The position numbers and the translations under genes are program-made. DNA of 64,000 bases from a virus (taxonomy: Duplodnaviria > Heunggongvirae > Uroviricota > Caudoviricetes), in the IMG/VR virus record IMGVR_UViG_3300029996_000255; one strand, written 5' to 3'. This document shows positions 22,889-48,638 of the stretch, piece after piece. The notes under the pieces were generated by a model that was not told where the DNA came from, ran no database searches, and worked only from the letters and a program-made list of their open reading frames with translations. Position 1 is the stretch's first letter. Every line of letters begins with the position of its first letter.

Positions 22889-23146
22889 TTGAGTAGATAT
22901 AAGAATGGAAACCCAAAACATGCAAGTCGATTCATATGTTTAAAATGTATGAATGAAAATATGTTAGCCAGTGGAATTCAGAGACAGAGACAAAGAGAAC
23001 GAAAACATATTAAGGATTTGTATTGTTTGAAGTGTGGAGAGGTAACGAAGTGCATCGAAGTAAGATTTTGTGATTCTTATGAAGAAATTTTTGAGGTTGC
23101 AAAGATAAAAAGAGAGAATTATTACATAGACAATTATGAAAGGTAG
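22889..23146 (+). CDS. hypothetical zinc-ribbon protein (CLKCMN...CLKCGE)
   Basis: ORF track; AATGAGGTGAATAATG RBS. Confidence 0.45.
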   Translation: MSRYKNGNPKHASRFICLKCMNENMLASGIQRQRQRERKHIKDLYCLKCGEVTKCIEVRFCDSYEEIFEVAKIKRENYYIDNYER

Positions 23147-24152
23147 GTTGATGATAATGTGTTATAAAATAGAAGTGCAGAATAAAAATGCGGAGAAGCT
23201 TAATAAAAAATTAGATGAGTTAAATGCACCACAATTTTTAAGAGATTACTTAAATGAGTTGGAAAGCAAAAACGGAGCGCTAAATTATTTAGTGGCAATT
23301 AAAGATTTTTTACAGTGGTTGATTGAAAGTAATATTATTAATAAGAAATCAATTTCTGAAATAGAAGTTTCTGATTTTAATGACCTAAGACCACAAAATA
23401 TTAGTTCATATCTTAGATATAAGGAAACAAATGGAATGTCACCAACCACAACAGAAACAAGGAAAAATATCATTAAAAGTTTTATACAGGATATTTATTC
23501 ATACAGAGAGTGTTTGTTAAGAGAAGTTTATAGTAATATAGAAGATTTTTACAAAATGATTAAATATAAGGGAATCCCATCTGGAAACAACTTAATAAAA
23601 AAACTTCCAACAGAAAAGCAGCTTAATGACATGGAAGAGAAGATAATGTGGAAAAAGGATATTGCAGTAAAAAATAGGAATATTGCTATCTTTAGGGTAT
23701 TAAGGGGCACTGGTATAAGAGAGTCAGAGCTTGCTGGCTTAGATTTATCTGATTTACATTTGAAGGAAGAAATGCCATACATTACTATTCTTGGCAAAGG
23801 TGTGTACAGAGAAATGCAAAATAGAACCGTATATCTTAGCGGATCAGCCTTAAAAGCATTGAAAGAGTGGTTAGAGTATAGGTTGACATTGGATAATATT
23901 ATTGATACAGAAGCAGTTTTTATTAATAAAAACGGAACACGTACAACAGAGAAAAATATTAAGCAGATATTTGAAAATTACGGAAATGGTATTACTGCAC
24001 ATATGATGAGACATTATTATGCTACTGTAATGAATCAAAATGGAAATCTTGCATTCGTACAACAGCAGCTTGGGCATAGTAGTGTAAAAACAACTGTCAA
24101 AAATTATGCAAATGGAGCAGTGGGAATGAAAGATGTACTAAATAATATGTGA
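23136..24152 (+). CDS. int: tyrosine site-specific recombinase / phage integrase (alternative starts at 23151 and 23157)
   Basis: C-terminal catalytic motifs R..ELAGL, HMMRHYYAT, LGHSSVKTTVKNY read from the translation. Confidence 0.85.
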   Translation: MKGRLMIMCYKIEVQNKNAEKLNKKLDELNAPQFLRDYLNELESKNGALNYLVAIKDFLQWLIESNIINKKSISEIEVSDFNDLRPQNISSYLRYKETNGMSPTTTETRKNIIKSFIQDIYSYRECLLREVYSNIEDFYKMIKYKGIPSGNNLIKKLPTEKQLNDMEEKIMWKKDIAVKNRNIAIFRVLRGTGIRESELAGLDLSDLHLKEEMPYITILGKGVYREMQNRTVYLSGSALKALKEWLEYRLTLDNIIDTEAVFINKNGTRTTEKNIKQIFENYGNGITAHMMRHYYATVMNQNGNLAFVQQQLGHSSVKTTVKNYANGAVGMKDVLNNM

Positions 24153-29769: not shown

Positions 29770-31158
29770 ATGGGAAACAATAGAATGACAATTTGTAGAA
29801 AAATTAAATTATTTCCAGTAGGAGATAAGGATGAAATCAATAGAGTATATGACTTTATTAGAAATGGTCAGTATGCTCAATATCAGGCTTGTAACCTGCT
29901 TATGGGACAGCTTATGAGTGAATATTACAAATATAATCGTGATATTAAGAATGAAGAATTTAAGGCAAGACAGAAAGAAATAATGACAAACTCTAATATC
30001 ATATTAAAAGATATTGATTTTGCAACTGGTGTAGACACTCCATCAGCCGTTACTCAGAAAGTCAAGCAGGATTTCAGCACAGCTTTAAAGAATGGATTGG
30101 CTAAAGGTGAACGAACTGTAACAAATTATAAGAGAACTAATCCACTTATTACAAGAGGCAGAAACTTAACTTTTTATCATGAGTATGAAACATATCATGA
30201 TTTTTTAGACAAGATTAATGATTCTGATTTGGCGGTATATGTCAAGTGGGTTAATAAAATTGTATTTAAGGTTGTGTTTGGCAATCCGCATAGGTCATTA
30301 GAGTTAAGATCTGTTATTCAGAATATATTAGAAGAGAATTATAAAGTGCAAGGAAGTAGCATTGAAATTGATGGTAAGTCAATCATTTTAAATCTCTCAA
30401 TATCTATTCCAAAACAACTTAGAGAGCTGGATGAAAATATAGTAGTAGGTGTTGATTTAGGCATTGCAGTTCCTGCTATGTGTGCTTTAAACAATAATCT
30501 TTACGAGAGATTGGCAATTGGAAATGCAGATGATTTTCTAAGAATAAGAACTAAAATGCAAGCTCAGAGAAAAAGATTACAGAAGTCATTACGAAATACT
30601 TCTGGTGGTCATGGTAGAGCAAAGAAACTGAAAGCATTAGAAAGATTGCAGAAAGCAGAAGTACATTTTGTTGAAACATATTGTCATATGATAAGTAAAA
30701 GAGTCGTTGATTTTGCTTTAAAACATAATGCTAAATACATAAATATTGAGAATTTAACAGGATATGATACAAGTGATTTTATCCTGAGAAATTGGAGTTA
30801 TTATAAACTTCAAGATTATATTACATATAAAGCAGCTAAATACGGAATAGAAGTAAGAAAAATCAATCCTTGTTATACATCACAGATTTGTAGTGTATGT
30901 GGTAATTGGGAGTTTGGTCAGAGAAAGTCACAGTCAGTATTTGAATGTGCAAATGAGAATTGTGATAGTCATAAAAAATATGAAAAAACTGGTTTTAATG
31001 CAGACTTCAATGCTGCCAGAAACATTGCAATGTCAACTCTTTGGATGGGAAGTGGACAAGTTACTGAAAAGAGTAAACAGGAAGCAAGAGAATATTATGA
31101 TATCTCTGAAAAATATGAACAAAGTAAGAATGGTTCAGAGAATAATAAAGTAGCTTAA
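29770..31158 (+). CDS. TnpB/Cas12f-like RuvC nuclease (462 aa): RuvC-I VVGVDLGIAVPAM, Arg-rich helix, RuvC-II YINIENLTG, CxxC...CxxC zinc ribbon (CYTSQICSVCG...FECANENCDSH), RuvC-III NADFNAARNIA; catalytic D/E/D all present
   Basis: domain order and motifs match OrfB_IS605 plus the Zn-ribbon architecture; AAAAGGAGA RBS. Confidence 0.8.
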   Translation: MGNNRMTICRKIKLFPVGDKDEINRVYDFIRNGQYAQYQACNLLMGQLMSEYYKYNRDIKNEEFKARQKEIMTNSNIILKDIDFATGVDTPSAVTQKVKQDFSTALKNGLAKGERTVTNYKRTNPLITRGRNLTFYHEYETYHDFLDKINDSDLAVYVKWVNKIVFKVVFGNPHRSLELRSVIQNILEENYKVQGSSIEIDGKSIILNLSISIPKQLRELDENIVVGVDLGIAVPAMCALNNNLYERLAIGNADDFLRIRTKMQAQRKRLQKSLRNTSGGHGRAKKLKALERLQKAEVHFVETYCHMISKRVVDFALKHNAKYINIENLTGYDTSDFILRNWSYYKLQDYITYKAAKYGIEVRKINPCYTSQICSVCGNWEFGQRKSQSVFECANENCDSHKKYEKTGFNADFNAARNIAMSTLWMGSGQVTEKSKQEAREYYDISEKYEQSKNGSENNKVA

Positions 31159-32493: not shown

Positions 32494-32566
32494 TGGGATG
32501 TGGTGAAGTGGTCAACACATCAGATTTTGATTCTGACATTCGTGGGTTCGAATCCCACCATCCTAG
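32494..32566 (+). tRNA. tRNA-Gln (anticodon TTG)
   Basis: manual cloverleaf: acceptor TGGGATG/CATCCTA (U1:A72, typical of bacterial tRNA-Gln), anticodon stem TCAGA/TCTGA with loop TTTTGAT, T-arm GTGGG-TTCGAAT-CCCAC. Confidence 0.7.
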
Positions 32567-32570
32567 CTGT

Positions 32571-32643
32571 GTGCTATTAGATCAATAGGTAGAGCACTTG
32601 ACTTTTAATCAAGATGTTACGAGTTCAAGCCTCGTATGGCACA
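32571..32643 (+). tRNA. tRNA-Lys (anticodon TTT)
   Basis: acceptor GTGCTAT/ATGGCAC, D-loop with GG, anticodon stem CTTGA/TCAAG with loop CTTTTAA, T-arm ACGAG-TTCAAGC-CTCGT. Confidence 0.7.
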
Positions 32644-32672
32644 TTATTTATTATATTAGGAGGTATTTCAAA

Positions 32673-40576: not shown

Positions 40577-41065
40577 TTGACAGAGAATAATAAAAAAAAT
40601 AATTCTCAAGGGCTACGAGTGTTAAGTTTATGTGGTGGTGTAGAAACAGGATTATATGCGTTACAACAACTTGGAATACCTATAAGAGAATATCATACAT
40701 ATGAAATTTTACCAGAAGCCATAGCAGTTTCTCAGTATCATTTTCCGCTTGTGGTACATCATGGTGATTTATATGAAGCGGATTTTGAACAGTTCAAAGG
40801 ATTTGATCTTCTATTGGCAGGTACGTGCTGTCAGTCTCTTTCAAGAGTACGAATTGAAAATAAAGAAGTCAACAATGGTCTCGATGGTAAGTCAGGAATT
40901 TTCTTTAAAGCGATTGAGTGTCTTAGGGTAATTCAACCCAAATGTTTCATGTTTGAAAATGTAATACCAAGCAGTGATGAAGATCTAAAGACAATGACAG
41001 ATGAAATTATACATAATTATTACAATGATGATGAATGGGAGATGGTGGAAGATATTACTTACTAA
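40577..41065 (+). CDS. C5-cytosine DNA methyltransferase, N-terminal half (motif I LSLCGGVETG, catalytic-Cys motif IV GTCCQSLS, motif VI FMFENV). The last ~19 codons are insertion-derived
   Basis: motifs read from the translation. Confidence 0.7.
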   Translation: MTENNKKNNSQGLRVLSLCGGVETGLYALQQLGIPIREYHTYEILPEAIAVSQYHFPLVVHHGDLYEADFEQFKGFDLLLAGTCCQSLSRVRIENKEVNNGLDGKSGIFFKAIECLRVIQPKCFMFENVIPSSDEDLKTMTDEIIHNYYNDDEWEMVEDITY

Positions 41066-41699
41066 AGAAGTTAAAGTAAAAGCAAGAAGTAGAAATACAA
41101 AATTATTCGAGAGTTTGGGGTATAAGATTCCAAGAGACAAAGATGATCGAGGAAGAACTCGTGTAGTCCCTAATGCTACCATCATGGTTAAAATAGAGGA
41201 TCTACCAGAAGGGAGCAATGCAATAGTTAAATATCAATGTGATGATTGCGGTTCAATACATACAGTACATTATTCAGATTTAGCATATAGAAAAAATAGT
41301 CGTTTTAAGAAAAATGGTGAGACGTTATGTATTTATTGTTCTAATCATAGAAATTCTGGACAAAATAATCCTCAATATAAACATGGAGAACAAAGGTATT
41401 CTGAATATAGAAGTAACGCACGAAATAGGGGAATAGAGTTTAAACTGTCAGTTGAAGAGTTTAAAAATATAGTAAAACAACCTTGTCATTATTGTGGAGG
41501 ATTTTCATCAGAGTGGAATAAAAATAGCAGAGGTAATGGAATAGATAGAAAAAATAGTGACATAGGTTATATTTATGAAAATTGTGTTCCGTGTTGTAGT
41601 AAATGTAATTTTGTAAAAAACAATACCCCATATGATAAATTTTTGATATATATACGGAGGTTATATGAGACAACAAAGAATTATAAAATTTCGAAATAG
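41001..41699 (+). CDS. HNH homing endonuclease inserted inside the C5-methyltransferase gene (CHYCGG...NGIDRKNSDIGYIYENCVPCCSKCNFVK). Start uncertain; alternative ATGs at 41025-41031
   Basis: HNH motif; sits in a different frame from both methyltransferase halves. Confidence 0.7.
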   Translation: MKLYIIITMMMNGRWWKILLTKEVKVKARSRNTKLFESLGYKIPRDKDDRGRTRVVPNATIMVKIEDLPEGSNAIVKYQCDDCGSIHTVHYSDLAYRKNSRFKKNGETLCIYCSNHRNSGQNNPQYKHGEQRYSEYRSNARNRGIEFKLSVEEFKNIVKQPCHYCGGFSSEWNKNSRGNGIDRKNSDIGYIYENCVPCCSKCNFVKNNTPYDKFLIYIRRLYETTKNYKISK

Positions 41700-42210
41700 A
41701 AAGACAGGTGAAATTCAAACTTTTTCAGTAAGATTGATAGACTCTTCTTTATTTGGTTCTCAGAATCGTGAGAGATATTATTGGACAAACATACCGCTAG
41801 GTGAATTGCCTGAAGAATCTCCATTAGTTTTGAAAGATATTATGGAAAATAATGTAGGTGAGAAGTATTTCTACAAGAAGGACTTTGAGATTTTGGATAT
41901 GAATAAGCGTGTATGTGCTGAACTAAAGGTCAACACAACAGAAATGTGTAAAAGAATTTATAATCCAGATTTCAAAATGTCAACATTAACATGCGTGTCA
42001 GGTGGATATCACGAAAAGAAAGTATTAGATAGTGGTAGACCACGAAAACTTACAGAAGTTGAATATGAAAGATTACAGGGATTGCCTGATAATTTTACAA
42101 AAATTCAGCTTAACAATCGTTGGTTATCATACTCAAAAAGATGTAGTTTGATGGGCAATGGATGGAATGAACCTACTATTGAATGGATTTTGAGTGGGTT
42201 AAGAGAATAA
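41665..42210 (+). CDS. C5-cytosine DNA methyltransferase, C-terminal half (motif VIII QNRERYYW, target-recognition domain, motif IX RKLTEVEYERLQGLPDNF, motif X GNGW), with its own RBS (ACGGAGG) and ATG
   Basis: motifs read from the translation. Confidence 0.7.
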   Translation: MRQQRIIKFRNRKTGEIQTFSVRLIDSSLFGSQNRERYYWTNIPLGELPEESPLVLKDIMENNVGEKYFYKKDFEILDMNKRVCAELKVNTTEMCKRIYNPDFKMSTLTCVSGGYHEKKVLDSGRPRKLTEVEYERLQGLPDNFTKIQLNNRWLSYSKRCSLMGNGWNEPTIEWILSGLRE

Positions 42211-44576: not shown

Positions 44577-44675
44577 GAAGCACAAGAATCCGACATTTCA
44601 TGGTAAGTTTAACACTACATATACTGGTTAGATAAAATAATAATAACAAGATATAGTATAGAAAGGAAAAACATT

Positions 44676-45188
44676 ATGAGTAAAACACTAATTGTAATTG
44701 ATATGCAGAATGACTTTATTGATGGCTCACTTGGCACAAATGAAGCACAGAGTATTGTACTTAATGTGGCAAAGAAAATCAAGGAGTACAGAGAAAATGG
44801 TGATAGTGTAATTTTTACAAGAGATACACACCCAAATAATTATTTAGAAACATATGAAGGAAAGCATCTCCCAGTTGTCCATTGTGTAAAAAATACAATC
44901 GGATGGCAGATTTCAGATAAGTTAGATTTTGATATTGAGAATGACGTAGTTATTGATAAGCCGACTTTCGGATGGACACATTGGGATGATTTTGATTTTA
45001 CAGAAGTAGAAGTTTGTGGTCTTTGTACAGACATTTGTGTAGTGTCAAATGCACTTATGATTAGAGCAAATTATCCTAATATTGATATTACAGTGGATGC
45101 AAGTTGCTGTGCAGGTGTTACACCTGAGACGCATAAGGCTGCATTAGAGACAATGAAGATGTGTCAGATTAACGTGATTGGAGAGTAG
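44676..45188 (+). CDS. pncA: isochorismatase-family cysteine hydrolase, nicotinamidase (PncA)-like
   Basis: LIVIDMQNDFIDGSLG N-terminal motif, catalytic Cys in VCGLCTDICV, Zn-binding H...H. Confidence 0.7.
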   Translation: MSKTLIVIDMQNDFIDGSLGTNEAQSIVLNVAKKIKEYRENGDSVIFTRDTHPNNYLETYEGKHLPVVHCVKNTIGWQISDKLDFDIENDVVIDKPTFGWTHWDDFDFTEVEVCGLCTDICVVSNALMIRANYPNIDITVDASCCAGVTPETHKAALETMKMCQINVIGE

Positions 45189-45191
45189 AAT

Positions 45192-46028
45192 ATGATTAAA
45201 ATTAATGGTGAAATTGTAGCAATCAACAAGTTCCCAGATGGAACACCAAGAGTAAATATTGATACAAACAACATCGAGGAAGACACTTATGATGGCTCTC
45301 CTTGCATTTGGATTGAATGGATTTATGAGAGTAACGATGAGATGTTTTATCTGATGTTAGTAAGGAAACATCTTGAAAGATTTTTTACTAATGTGGATTA
45401 TTATTTATATCTTCCATATATTCCTAATGCACGAATGGATAGAGTAAAAAATGATGATGAAGTATTCACATTGAAGTATTTTTGCGATTTTATCAATTGG
45501 TTAGGATTTTCATCAGTTTATGTTTTAGATGCTCATAGCGATGTTTCTACTGCATTACTCAATAATTGTGTAAAAGAAAATCCAAAAGAGTATGTTGATA
45601 AAGCTATTTCAAAGATTGGCATGAGAAATCTTGTACTTTATTTCCCAGACGCAGGTGCAGCTAAGAGATATTCAGATTTATTCCCTGAGTTACCATATTG
45701 TTATGGTGAAAAGAAAAGAGATTGGAAGACTGGCAAAATCCTTGGATTAGACATTATAACAAATGGTATTGATTTGAAGGACAAAGCTGTGTTAATGATT
45801 GATGATATTATCGCATATGGCGGTTCACTTTATTATAGCGCAGAAGAATTAAAGAAGATTGGTGTAAATGAGATTTATGCTTATGCAACACATACAGAAA
45901 ATTCAATTCTTGATAAAGAAAAGGGTACGTTGATTAAGTCTTTGGAGAATAATACAGTGAGAGCATTATTCACAACAAACAGTATTTTTACTGGCAAGCA
46001 TGAAAAGATTACAGTTATGGAGGTTTAA
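45192..46028 (+). CDS. ribose-phosphate pyrophosphokinase (PRPP synthetase)-family protein; candidate ADP-ribose pyrophosphokinase (Adps) of an NARP1-type NAD+ reconstitution pathway
   Basis: PRPP/phosphoribosyl-binding loop VLMIDDIIAYGGSL; adjacent to a NAMPT homolog. Confidence 0.65.
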   Translation: MIKINGEIVAINKFPDGTPRVNIDTNNIEEDTYDGSPCIWIEWIYESNDEMFYLMLVRKHLERFFTNVDYYLYLPYIPNARMDRVKNDDEVFTLKYFCDFINWLGFSSVYVLDAHSDVSTALLNNCVKENPKEYVDKAISKIGMRNLVLYFPDAGAAKRYSDLFPELPYCYGEKKRDWKTGKILGLDIITNGIDLKDKAVLMIDDIIAYGGSLYYSAEELKKIGVNEIYAYATHTENSILDKEKGTLIKSLENNTVRALFTTNSIFTGKHEKITVMEV

Positions 46029-46032
46029 AATT

Positions 46033-47493
46033 ATGGATAACACAATGGCTTTATTACTTAGTGATACTTATAAGCAGTGTCATGATCGTATGTACCCAAA
46101 GGGATTAACTAAGTTAGTCTCATATTGGGTGCCTCGTAAATCAATGTTGGAAAATCAGAATCATATGGTTTTCTTCGGATTACAGGCTTTTATTAAGGAA
46201 TATCTAATTGGATATTTCCAGAAGAATTTCTTTGAATTATCAGAGAATGAGATGTTATCTCTTTATACAGATTCAATGGATGTGCAGATTGGCAGAGATA
46301 ATTACGACTTAGAGAAGATTGTAGAACTTCACAGACTTGGTTATCTGCCACTTGAAATTAGAGCTTTACCAGAGGGAACACTTGTACCAATGGGAGTTCC
46401 TTGTATTGAAATTACCAATACAGATGACAAATTTGCATGGCTTGTTCAGTGGATTGAGTGTATCCTTCAGGTTGAATTATGGAAGCCTTGCTGTCACGCA
46501 ACTATTGGTCATATGTATCGTGAGATTGCAGATTATTGGTATAACAAAACAACAGACGGTTTACCTGGCAATATGGCTTGTGCCGATTTTGGTATGAGAG
46601 GTATGTCTTGTATGGACGAAGCTACAAGATGTTCTGCTTCATGGTTATTATCTTTCAATAAGACTTCAACTATTCCTGCCATTACATATATTGATAAATA
46701 TTACAATGCTGATTGTAAGAATAATGGTATTGGAATTGGTGCAGTGTCAACAGAACATTCCGTAATGGGAGCAAATTACTCAATTGATGGTGATGAGATT
46801 ACATTTGTTAAGAGATTGCTTACAGAATTATATCCAAATACTTCATTCAGTATGGTTTCAGATACTTATGATTATTGGAATATGGTAAACAATATTCTTC
46901 CACAGTGCAAGGAAGAAATTATGAATCATAATGGCAAGTTACTTGTTCGTCCTGATAGTGGTGATATTGTAGAGATTTCAGTTAAGACAGTAGAAAGATT
47001 ATGGGATATCTTTGGTGGTTCTATCAATGGCAAGGGTTATAAGGTGTTAGATCCACATATTGGTATTATCTATGGTGACGGATGTACTCTTTCTAATGTA
47101 GAAACTATTTGGAAAGAATTAGAAAAGCGTGGATTTGCAGCTAATAACATTGCTTATGGTGTAGGTGCATTTTGTTTTACAGCTATTGTCGAGAATGGAA
47201 AGATGATTGTTGTTACAAGAGATACTTTTGGAATTGCAATGAAGGCTACTTATGGAGTTATTGATGGTAAGAAGCTTATGATCTTCAAAGATCCGAAGAC
47301 TGATACAAGCCATTTAAAGAAATCTCATAAGGGGTGTTGCAAAGTATATGAAGAAGATGGAGAACTGAAGTGTCAGGATCAGTTACTCGATATGAATGAA
47401 GATAGTTTGCTTACAACTGTATTCAAGAATGGAGAATTAGTAAGAGAGGATACATTTGAGGACATTAGGAACAGAATGTATGGAGGAAAGTAA
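46033..47493 (+). CDS. nadV: nicotinamide phosphoribosyltransferase (NAMPT/NadV) family protein; candidate Namat
   Basis: N-terminal LLLSDTYKQCHDRMYPKG...VSYWVPR pattern and ~490-aa size typical of NAMPT. Confidence 0.7.
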   Translation: MDNTMALLLSDTYKQCHDRMYPKGLTKLVSYWVPRKSMLENQNHMVFFGLQAFIKEYLIGYFQKNFFELSENEMLSLYTDSMDVQIGRDNYDLEKIVELHRLGYLPLEIRALPEGTLVPMGVPCIEITNTDDKFAWLVQWIECILQVELWKPCCHATIGHMYREIADYWYNKTTDGLPGNMACADFGMRGMSCMDEATRCSASWLLSFNKTSTIPAITYIDKYYNADCKNNGIGIGAVSTEHSVMGANYSIDGDEITFVKRLLTELYPNTSFSMVSDTYDYWNMVNNILPQCKEEIMNHNGKLLVRPDSGDIVEISVKTVERLWDIFGGSINGKGYKVLDPHIGIIYGDGCTLSNVETIWKELEKRGFAANNIAYGVGAFCFTAIVENGKMIVVTRDTFGIAMKATYGVIDGKKLMIFKDPKTDTSHLKKSHKGCCKVYEEDGELKCQDQLLDMNEDSLLTTVFKNGELVREDTFEDIRNRMYGGK

Positions 47494-47494
47494 T

Positions 47495-47902
47495 ATGGAT
47501 TTTTATCTTCAAGCCAATAATTCCTACAATAGATTAGAGGAAGAATTTAAGAAATATGGCAAGCTTATTTTTTGTGTAGATTTCGATGATACGATTTATG
47601 ACTTCCATAAGAAGGGTAGGACATATGAGAATGTCATTAATCTTTTACAAAGATGGGAGAATTATTCAGAGATAATTATTTTTACTGGGAATGGTGAAGA
47701 TAAATACGGAATGATTGAGCAGTATCTAAAGGACAACAATATCAAGTATAGAGGTATCAATTGTGACGCATCTGTAGCTTTTGCAAGTAGAAAAATATAT
47801 GCAAATGTTTATATTGATGACAGAGGCGGTTTAATTCAGGTGTACAATGAATTACTTACATTGATTGAGAAGATTGAAAAAGGAGAGATAAAGCATGAGT
47901 AA
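47495..47902 (+). CDS. HAD-superfamily hydrolase-like protein (motif I FCVDFDDTIY)
   Basis: DxDxT motif; GGAAAGTAAT ATG. Confidence 0.5.
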   Translation: MDFYLQANNSYNRLEEEFKKYGKLIFCVDFDDTIYDFHKKGRTYENVINLLQRWENYSEIIIFTGNGEDKYGMIEQYLKDNNIKYRGINCDASVAFASRKIYANVYIDDRGGLIQVYNELLTLIEKIEKGEIKHE

Positions 47903-48638
47903 TTTTGACGCAAAGACAGTAAAGAATGAAGTAGTACAGTGGATCAGAGATTGGTTTGAGAAGAATGGCAAGGATTGTAATGCAGTAGTTGGGATTTCAG
48001 GAGGTAAGGACTCAAGTGTTGTAGCTGCTCTGTGCGTAGAAGCTCTTGGAAAGGATAGAGTGTTTGGTGTACTTATGCCACAGGGAGAACAGTCAGACAT
48101 TAGTTATTCTCATATGCTTGTTGAACATCTTGGAATTGATAGTTGTGTTGTTAATATTGGTAACACAGTTCGTACATTAAAGCATGAGATTAAGCCACAG
48201 TTAGGAGATCATTGGTCAAAACAGACATCTACAAATCTTCCAGCTCGTATCAGAATGGCTACACTTTATGCAGTATCTCAGACAATCAATGGTCGTGTTG
48301 CTAATACGTGCAATCTTTCAGAGGATTGGGTAGGTTATGCGACCAGATATGGAGATGCAGCAGGTGATTTCAGTCCACTATCGCAGCTCACAGTTTCGGA
48401 AGTTAAGGCGATTGGTCGTGAATTAGGACTTCCATCTGAGTTAGTAGATAAGACACCTACTGACGGTCTTTGTGGAAAGACTGACGAGGACAACCTTGGA
48501 TTCACTTATTACACTCTTGATAGATATATCAGAACAGGGGAGATTGATGATGAGGATGTAAAAGCGAAGATTGATTCAATGCATGAGAAGAATTTATTCA
48601 AGCTTCAGCTTATGCCATCATTTCATCCAAATTTTTAA
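47895..48638 (+). CDS. nadE: NH3-dependent NAD+ synthetase (NadE, PP-loop ATP pyrophosphatase)
   Basis: GISGGKDSSVVAAL PP-loop; typical ~245-aa size. Confidence 0.8.
   Translation: MSNFDAKTVKNEVVQWIRDWFEKNGKDCNAVVGISGGKDSSVVAALCVEALGKDRVFGVLMPQGEQSDISYSHMLVEHLGIDSCVVNIGNTVRTLKHEIKPQLGDHWSKQTSTNLPARIRMATLYAVSQTINGRVANTCNLSEDWVGYATRYGDAAGDFSPLSQLTVSEVKAIGRELGLPSELVDKTPTDGLCGKTDEDNLGFTYYTLDRYIRTGEIDDEDVKAKIDSMHEKNLFKLQLMPSFHPNF

Follow-up and report, generated by a model that had tools for sequence, protein, structure and literature searches.

Among the published systems by which phages reconstitute NAD+, NARP1 of the Bacillus phage SpβL1 and of the E. coli phage Bas63 relies on the proteins Adps and Namat, and forms NAD+ from ADP-ribose pyrophosphate (ADPR-PP) and nicotinamide. 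In NARP1-AP, found in Vibrio phage Gary with the gene order Adps-Adpp-Namat, the Macro-domain phosphatase Adpp is encoded between the two partners and converts ADP-ribose (ADPR)-1''-phosphate into ADPR, so that NARP1 defeats aRES (bioRxiv 10.64898/2026.01.28.702374), and a NARP1 with RyDEP has also been published (bioRxiv 10.64898/2026.05.28.727677). NARP2 is composed of NadV and NatV, a nicotinamide phosphoribosyltransferase (NAMPT) and a nicotinamide mononucleotide adenylyltransferase. None of these systems, nor NARP3, involves the nicotinamidase PncA, the NAD+ synthetase NadE or a nicotinate-specific transferase, and full-text searches of the literature found no paper that links Namat or NARP1 to PncA, NadE, nicotinic acid or nicotinic acid adenine dinucleotide (NaAD). 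Here, a five-gene cluster is described from a 64,000-nucleotide stretch of viral DNA (Caudoviricetes; IMG/VR record IMGVR_UViG_3300029996_000255; hereafter the window), which encodes, in this order, a PncA-like protein, a homologue of the phosphoribosyl pyrophosphate (PRPP) synthetase Prs, a NAMPT homologue, a HAD-superfamily phosphatase and NadE. NARP3, which consists of PnuC and NadR (PMC13464706), was considered for the locus and rejected.

With NARP1 the cluster shares adjacent genes of the Adps and Namat clades (with a gap of 4 nt in the window), the conserved Adps lysine and the Namat catalytic core, as well as the phage setting. Unlike NARP1, however, the window has a serine in place of the aspartate that binds nicotinamide, four further changes in the same pocket and a nine-residue interruption of the clamp helix; its gene pair has an obligatory link to PncA and NadE, neither of which was found in any sampled canonical operon; and the predicted product of its transferase is NaAD and not NAD+. 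NARP1-AP resembles the window in that a phosphatase gene is embedded in the operon, and it resembles the sister phages of the window in that a Poa1p-like Macro gene occupies there the slot of the window's HAD gene. Adpp is a Macro-domain protein, whereas the window phosphatase has a HAD fold and would be a non-homologous replacement. NARP2 and NadV differ from the window in that the latter has Ser212 for Asp219 of NAMPT, and its protein resembles Namat twice as strongly as it does NAMPT.

Outside the phage systems, the Preiss-Handler operon (e.g., of Clostridium acetobutylicum) likewise has PncA as its first and NadE as its last enzyme and follows a deamidated route, and it contains nrtR, just as an NrtR-like regulator gene usually adjoins the operon in the chromosomal relatives of the cluster. 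In the window, by contrast, PncB and NadD are swapped for the Adps and Namat-like proteins, the predicted source of the ADP-ribosyl group is ADPR instead of PRPP and ATP, and nicotinic acid mononucleotide (NaMN) would not be formed. Chromosomal pairs of Adps-like and Namat-like genes, comparable to the Clostridia operon discussed below, occur in the NrtR-regulated prs-nadV operons of Shewanella and Acinetobacter and in the bacterial NARP1 of Paenibacillus foliorum, whose published descriptions, unlike the window, include neither PncA nor NadE. Human NAMPT D219S carries the same exchange of aspartate for serine at the specificity position, but it was made by engineering a single change into an enzyme that uses PRPP, whereas the window transferase displays a natural remodelling of five positions.

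It is rather probable, as judged from the sequences, that the cluster represents a self-contained deamidated version of NARP1 in which NAD+ is rebuilt through nicotinate. From the observed gene identities, intact active sites, residue switches, covariation and slot-replacement patterns we infer the substrates, the products and a role in counter-defence. The starting point would be NAD+ that has been cleaved to ADPR and nicotinamide; PncA would deamidate the nicotinamide to nicotinate and NH3, the Adps-like kinase would pyrophosphorylate ADPR to ADPR-PP, the Namat-like transferase would join nicotinate, and not nicotinamide, to ADPR-PP and yield NaAD directly, and NadE would re-amidate NaAD to NAD+. 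In a feeder step, the HAD phosphatase would remove the phosphate from phosphorylated ADPR, most likely from the ADPR-1''-phosphate of RES-type NAD+ phosphorylases. The chances are about even for the broader proposal that a new activity, nicotinate + ADPR-PP → NaAD, defines a PncA-Adps-nicotinate ADPR-transferase-NadE pathway which is common in gut-Clostridia operons and phages and in which HAD has independently replaced the Macro phosphatase.

The logic of the scheme is that PncA yields nicotinate and the substrate of NadE is NaAD, therefore the two genes between them must turn nicotinate into NaAD, for which ADPR-PP + nicotinate → NaAD is the simplest fitting reaction, as an adenylyltransferase is not needed. 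When all frames of the window were searched with regular expressions, neither adenylyltransferase motifs (HxGH, ISSTxxR) nor a Nudix box came up, and no member of the NatV, NadM or NadR families is present among the called genes of the related locus L164. In addition, modelled bacterial NAD pathways perform best when PncA and Nampt are mutually exclusive (PMC9316036), and a PncA encoded beside an enzyme that uses nicotinamide would compete with it for the substrate and so defeat the purpose.

The two outer enzymes of the scheme are readily recognized. The PncA-like protein matches the Isochorismatase family (PF00857, 6e-29) and has the pyrazinamidase/nicotinamidase of Pyrococcus horikoshii (1ilw) as its best solved relative, followed by yeast Pnc1. 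Alignment to 1ilw and Pnc1 revealed that the catalytic Asp (IDMQNDF), Lys (DKPTFG) and Cys (GLCTDICV) are all present, as is the Asp/His/His metal site (TRDTH...VHCV). NadE matches PF02540 (2e-55) and scores 184 bits against TIGR00552, which has a curated cutoff of 63.65; its SGGKDS loop corresponds to the SGGxDS motif of ATP-pyrophosphatases, and it has no glutaminase domain.

The initial annotation had suspected that the two inner genes form a NARP1-like pair, and the kinase agrees with this suggestion. By sequence it belongs to the Adps clade and not to housekeeping Prs, since it scores 137 bits (34.7% identity) against the experimentally validated SpβL1 Adps and at most 54 bits against solved Prs enzymes, and its 91 bits against TIGR01251 fall under the cutoff of 113; it also matches phrog_619, labelled 'ribose-phosphate pyrophosphokinase', at 7e-65. 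A profile built from the Adps proteins of canonical operons assigned 206 bits to the window kinase, within the range of its own members (197-330), as compared with 142 bits for a fragment of B. subtilis Prs. The catalytic lysine of SpβL1 Adps (K162) is kept within the sequence GEKKRDW. The motifs PNARMDR, KRxWKTGKI, DDxxxxGG and THxENS are common to the window kinase and SpβL1 Adps and unlike those of Prs, and appear in the window as, among others, PNARMDR, DDIIAYGGS and THTENS. The C-terminal extension of Prs is absent, and Adps is known to have lost the C-terminal helices of Prs (PMC13586617). SpβL1 Adps itself lacks Prs activity (bioRxiv 10.1101/2024.02.11.579819).

The transferase fits the suggested pair in part. 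Its sequence places it in the Namat clade and not with housekeeping NAMPT, as it scores 395 bits against the SpβL1 Namat crystal structure 9w5x and 315 against 9ke8 compared with 193 against human NAMPT, and it matches NF006629 (466 bits) and phrog_448 (3e-163). Nine catalytic and ribose-phosphate residues, D13, Y15, F189, R192, H245, R306, D308, D361 and R399 (SpβL1 numbering, used below unless stated otherwise), are all kept in the window transferase and are invariant in 242 of 244 homologues and in three alignments. However, it misses three Namat signatures, namely D215, the clamp-helix motif and the clamp-loop residue, and is therefore not filed as a canonical Namat.

The first of these signatures concerns the recognition of the pyridine. 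The nicotinamide pocket of Namat is formed by F189, R192, D215, A242, R306, D13' and Y15', and D215 hydrogen-bonds nicotinamide (PMC12774641). The equivalent residue of human NAMPT, D219, was shown to define its substrate specificity (Khan et al., as cited in PMC7096376), and in the human enzyme the D219A exchange abolishes activity and D219S 'switches substrate affinity' (PMC4919578, Table 2). In direct alignments to Namat and human NAMPT, this aspartate is replaced by Ser212 in the window transferase; serine is present in all 79 scored close relatives, and alanine is found in three other lineages. The human D219S mutant reportedly admits nicotinic acid. Four additional pocket positions (242, 187, 213 and 239) change together with 215 in all four Ala/Ser lineages, the concerted changes being A242 to S, H187 to A/G, G213 to K/N/R/V and S239 to G/Y. 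In human numbering, the window transferase carries A244S, H191A, G217K and S241G, and these four human residues line the nicotinamide and inhibitor tunnel. Position 242 is alanine in 100% of the Asp/Glu-type enzymes and serine in all four Ala/Ser lineages.

The association of this pocket with the flanking genes was scored at 244 loci, consisting of three GenBank phage records, 79 close IMG/VR relatives, 80 diverse IMG/VR loci, 80 loci of GTDB species genomes, a contig of Clostridium sp. Marseille-P7770 (P7770) and the window, purpose-built hidden Markov models being used to read position 215 of each homologue and to identify the genes up to 6 kb away. At the 168 loci with Ala or Ser at position 215, both PncA and NadE were present in 147, at least one in 166 and neither in 2, whereas all 76 loci with Asp or Glu had neither (both, 0; at least one, 0). 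Contig ends truncate most of the Ala/Ser loci that are incomplete, and a few have full flanks without a detected NadE or PncA (e.g., L165, L239; L- and P-numbers are our locus and protein identifiers). A further 72 records of the Asp/Glu type, many of them from contigs already in the diverse IMG/VR sample, have neither gene, and a repeat viral scan that started from SpβL1 Namat shared its candidate pool with the diverse IMG/VR scan and added few independent loci. In the reverse direction, a scan anchored on phage NadE recovered Ala/Ser215 together with Ser242 in all 64 loci that have a full-length homologue. The linkage to PncA and NadE persists at 32-52% identity, across moves between phage and chromosome, through a change of gene order (in MT835544, PncA follows NadE) and through swaps of NH3-dependent and Gln-dependent NadE. 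As far as the sequences tell, the homologues with Ser or Ala for Asp215 are precisely those beside PncA and NadE and no others, which favours the route through nicotinic acid that the initial annotation had raised tentatively. Separately, a Namat clade with Glu215 (L107, L133, L134, L138, L142, L144-L146, L148, L153, L155, L159, L161) has 'KSRD' for 'TRD' in the clamp motif; its frequent gene order is Namat-HAD-Adps, and PncA and NadE are never present.

The fourth gene of the cluster appears to act on the ADPR side of the scheme. In the HAD protein, motifs I-IV (DxDxT, S/T, K, DD) are conserved, and its Rossmannoid fold was obtained with an AlphaFold model from a 47-sequence alignment, a single-sequence model (pLDDT, the model's confidence score, 53) being discarded. 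The protein is unrecognized by Pfam and has no Macro match. Among the 79 close relatives, the slot between transferase and NadE holds the HAD gene in 23 and a Poa1p-like Macro gene in 53 (an example of the replacement is L007, 7461-8332), which in 32 cases is accompanied by NADAR (PF08719, 3e-27). The slot Macro protein has 153 aa, its relatives are annotated as ADP-ribose 1''-phosphate phosphatase and it shows weak matches to solved Poa1p structures. HAD and Macro genes occur together in none of the 99 loci carrying either, with the same result in later scans. Canonical Asp/Glu-type operons carry the same HAD family between Adps and Namat (L091, L163, L133, L145, L146, L159), and in L111 and L113 it is a Macro gene that stands in this position. 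The slot between transferase and NadE is a hot spot for the exchange of ADPR-processing genes, and because the HAD gene shares this slot with Macro and never co-occurs with it, its product is probably an analogous ADPR-phosphate phosphatase, most likely acting on ADPR-1''-phosphate, with 2'-phospho-ADPR and ADPR cyclic phosphate as alternative candidate substrates. A probable role can hence be proposed for a gene that had been left without one in the initial annotation.

Two natural fusions were also noted. P0102 (628 aa) joins a Ser-type transferase to a C-terminal HAD domain of the window's family, and P0117 (646 aa), from a cluster of 2,406 sequences, joins a Ser-type transferase to a different, DxDG-type HAD-like domain, for which Pfam gave no convincing match.

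The four-gene core without the HAD gene is not specific to phages. In Pseudoruminococcus massiliensis (L166, NZ_OLMR01000003, 4632-10324) the order is pncA, adps-like, namat-like (Ala215), nadE (Gln-type) and nrtR, with ordinary bacterial flanks, and the chromosomal operon is widespread in the genomes of Lachnospiraceae, Ruminococcus and Oscillospiraceae. An NrtR homologue adjoins 59 of the 80 GTDB genome loci and no phage locus. NrtR is a Nudix-related NAD regulator whose most effective known effector is ADPR, and the classical Clostridial operon is nrtR-pncA-pncB-nadD-nadE (PMC2330246). The chromosomal operon parallels this arrangement in that Adps and the transferase replace PncB and NadD, the segment that leads from nicotinate to NaAD. 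These findings suggest that the chromosomal operon is a housekeeping route for recycling ADPR and niacin in gut Clostridia, from which the four-gene core of the phages was probably captured.

Several points weigh against the proposed reading. First, the published adenine clamp is not intact in the window lineage. The clamp-helix motif GSxΦxΦxΦTRD is broken by an insertion (GVGAFCFT[AIVENGKMI]VVTRD), with a Phe kept at motif position 3 and no aromatic residue at position 7, and the selectivity-clamp loop, in which Arg, Lys or Tyr is expected, reads PRKSMLEN, with Met at the R40 position. The insertion also occurs in the lineage of MT835544 and the Clostridia chromosomes but not in those of Phass-1 and L101, where the helix motif is intact (GAYTYQYVTRD in Phass-1) alongside Ala215; at the R40 position Phass-1 has Lys, and the lineages of MT835544 and L101 have Arg. 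The use of ADPR-PP is therefore less secure in the window lineage than in those of Phass-1 and L101. Second, the formation of NaAD from ADPR-PP has never been reported, and the scheme does not explain why a phage would prefer the longer, more ATP-costly deamidated route. Third, the Ala/Ser lineages form three deep basal branches in a neighbour-joining tree (the Phass-1 group; L101; MT835544 with the window group), therefore the covariation may trace to one ancient event, and the sample of loci came from pattern-seeded scans and is not exhaustive. Finally, the substrate of the HAD protein is assigned from position and mutual exclusivity only, and its nearest structural relative, BT_0820, is itself without known function.

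With regard to purpose, the phage cluster most likely serves, by analogy, to keep NAD+ up against NAD+-depleting defences, because canonical NARP1 has this role and because Macro, NADAR and HAD genes are gained specifically in phages. An unlikely though quite possible alternative accepts the same chemistry, but sees the cluster as an auxiliary metabolic module that would recycle the ADPR and nicotinamide released by NAD+ consumers, including the Sir2 protein of the phage (39367-40119), and would thereby boost NAD+ for replication. The four-gene core being a gut-Clostridia chromosomal operon that usually lies beside an NrtR-like gene, the CobB-type sirtuin encoded 4.5 kb upstream in the phage, and the known bacterial NARP1 homologues with possible housekeeping roles (PMC12774641; bioRxiv 10.1101/2024.02.11.579819) are all in keeping with such a module. 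Nevertheless, in the phage copies NrtR is lost and Macro, NADAR or HAD genes are added, the Macro type counters the aRES defence (bioRxiv 10.64898/2026.01.28.702374), and canonical phage NARP1 is anti-defence by experiment, which argue for the counter-defence role.

The main rival explanation concerns the chemistry itself and is a PRPP-based look-alike of the Preiss-Handler route, in which the Prs-like protein would make PRPP, the transferase would convert nicotinate and PRPP into NaMN, the host NadD would produce NaAD and the phage NadE would finish the pathway, ADPR not being used at all. The pocket switch and the linkage to PncA and NadE indicate nicotinate and not ADPR-PP, the adenine clamp is disrupted in the window lineage, Namat keeps PRPP activity in vitro (PMC12774641) and NadD is universal in hosts, all of which this scheme accommodates. 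It is nonetheless improbable, given that the kinase groups with Adps, whose SpβL1 member is not a Prs in action (bioRxiv 10.1101/2024.02.11.579819), that Ala215 and an intact clamp occur together in the lineages of Phass-1 and L101, that the variable slot is occupied only by ADPR-handling genes (Macro, NADAR, HAD), and that the chromosomal versions usually adjoin a gene resembling the ADPR-responsive NrtR (PMC2330246). Moreover, the PRPP scheme depends on the host for one enzyme, while the ADPR scheme is complete by itself. For the window phage in particular, the use of ADPR-PP is proposed because of the Adps partner, the ADPR-handling slot genes and NrtR as a neighbour in its nearest chromosomal relatives. 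A canonical NARP1 that makes NAD+ from ADPR-PP and nicotinamide, with PncA, HAD and NadE as unrelated host-type salvage helpers that are neighbours by chance, is very improbable, for although the pair is homologous to Adps and Namat with all catalytic residues intact, the nicotinamide-binding Asp is gone and four more pocket positions are changed, D219A abolishes the activity of human NAMPT (PMC4919578), PncA and NadE accompany 0 of 76 Asp/Glu-type operons, and a neighbouring PncA would destroy the transferase's own substrate.

The coordinates of the cluster and of its distinctive features are collected in Table 1. All five open reading frames (ORFs) lie on the + strand and their family matches are far beyond chance; the genes are those listed in the initial annotation. 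Their spacing is operon-like, with intergenic gaps of 3, 4 and 1 nt and an 8-nt overlap between the HAD and NadE genes. The start of the NAMPT-like gene was set by its homologues at the ATG at 46033 (the mechanical ORF begins at 46000); the HAD-like gene is placed at 47495-47902 (the mechanical ORF begins at 47456). The boundaries of the transcription unit were set by gene spacing only, because a promoter and terminator scan of the region returned a site total no higher than that of shuffled sequence; the top-scoring promoter-like site (10/12) is included in the table.

Table 1. Genes and features of the NAD+ cluster in the window, with the predicted or putative reaction or the basis of the assignment
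Feature	Position	Strand	Predicted reaction or basis
PncA-type nicotinamidase, 170 aa	44676..45188	+	predicted: nicotinamide → nicotinate + NH3
Adps-clade Prs homologue, 278 aa	45192..46028	+	putative: ADPR + ATP → ADPR-PP + AMP
Namat-clade NAMPT homologue with remodelled pyridine pocket, 486 aa	46033..47493	+	putative nicotinate:ADPR-PP transferase → NaAD
Ser212 codon (= SpβL1 Namat D215, human NAMPT D219)	46666..46668	+	alignments
Ser239 codon (= SpβL1 A242, human A244)	46747..46749	+	alignment column checked against human NAMPT
Nine-residue insertion AIVENGKMI within the adenine clamp-helix motif GSxΦxΦxΦTRD	47182..47208	+	alignments
Cap-less HAD-superfamily phosphatase, 135 aa	47495..47902	+	putative: phosphorylated ADPR (most likely ADPR-1''-P) → ADPR
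NH3-dependent NadE, 247 aa	47895..48638	+	predicted: NaAD + ATP + NH3 → NAD+
Promoter-like site TTAACA-18-TAAAAT	44609..44638	+	within the 99-nt gap 5' of the cluster; weak evidence

That the cluster is an expanded variant, as had been suggested, is borne out by its recurrence. The identical five-gene order is found in phage Phass-1, with proteins 32-45% identical, and the P7770 contig also carries all five genes in this order. In the close IMG/VR relatives (80 were fetched), which are viral contigs of up to 178 kb with NAMPT-like proteins 83-99% identical to that of the window, PncA, Adps, the Namat-like protein and NadE are retained wherever the contig permits, and the HAD gene in only 23. 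A megablast search with the cluster DNA against GenBank phages gave no match, and protein-level searches alone were informative. Because of the P7770 contig with its five genes and the viral contigs of up to 178 kb, the element is taken to be a large phage or prophage of gut Clostridia. In Phass-1 (OQ749652, L001, 380-5500) the cluster lies directly 3' of a large tRNA array with a CTA suppressor tRNA, and this phage uses genetic code 15, but its NAD genes are without in-frame TAG codons; its genome paper mentions 'nicotinamidase' only as a difference between genomes. Code-15 stop recoding as in Phass-1 was rejected for the window, where all five genes are open in the standard code. An ORF of 214 aa with a CxxxCxxC motif and weak radical-SAM/4Fe-4S matches was observed between PncA and Adps in L005 (4532-5176), and one of the same type and length lies directly 5' of PncA in L164 (4541-5185).

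The window has a G+C content of about 31%, its ORFs are nearly all on the + strand and a strong positive GC skew runs throughout. An integrase-like gene lies at 23136-24152, a transposase-like gene at 29770-31158 and the pair tRNA-Gln and tRNA-Lys at 32494-32644, and at least five genes resemble DNA methyltransferases. A C5 DNA methyltransferase is seemingly split into an ORF with motifs I and IV (40577-41065) and another with QNRER and GNGW (41665-42210), and a Cys-rich HNH-like ORF of 232 aa (41001-41699) lies between the halves and overlaps both, an arrangement that looks like a homing-endonuclease or intron-type insertion. The sirtuin mentioned above is a CobB/Sir2-type NAD-dependent deacylase (NF001752, 311 bits); it consumes NAD+ and releases nicotinamide and O-acyl-ADPR, which are, or come close to being, inputs of the proposed pathway.

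If the proposed pathway is true, it would add a new reaction to NAD+ metabolism, in which NaAD is made straight from ADP-ribose pyrophosphate and both NaMN and NadD are bypassed, and a third layout to the phage NAD+ reconstitution repertoire. The exchange of Asp215 for Ala or Ser together with that of Ala242 for Ser would serve as a sequence rule to separate the variant from canonical NARP1, and for the ADPR-1''-phosphatase step, by which RES-type defences are countered, the HAD protein would be a second candidate, not homologous to the first. Furthermore, the pathway would account for a gene cluster that is very abundant in the gut Clostridia of humans and animals and in their phages, and whose genes are now annotated as 'Prs' and 'NAMPT' (the 90%-identity protein cluster of the window transferase alone has 2,035 sequences), and it would provide a direct metabolic logic for the response of NrtR to ADPR in gut Clostridia.

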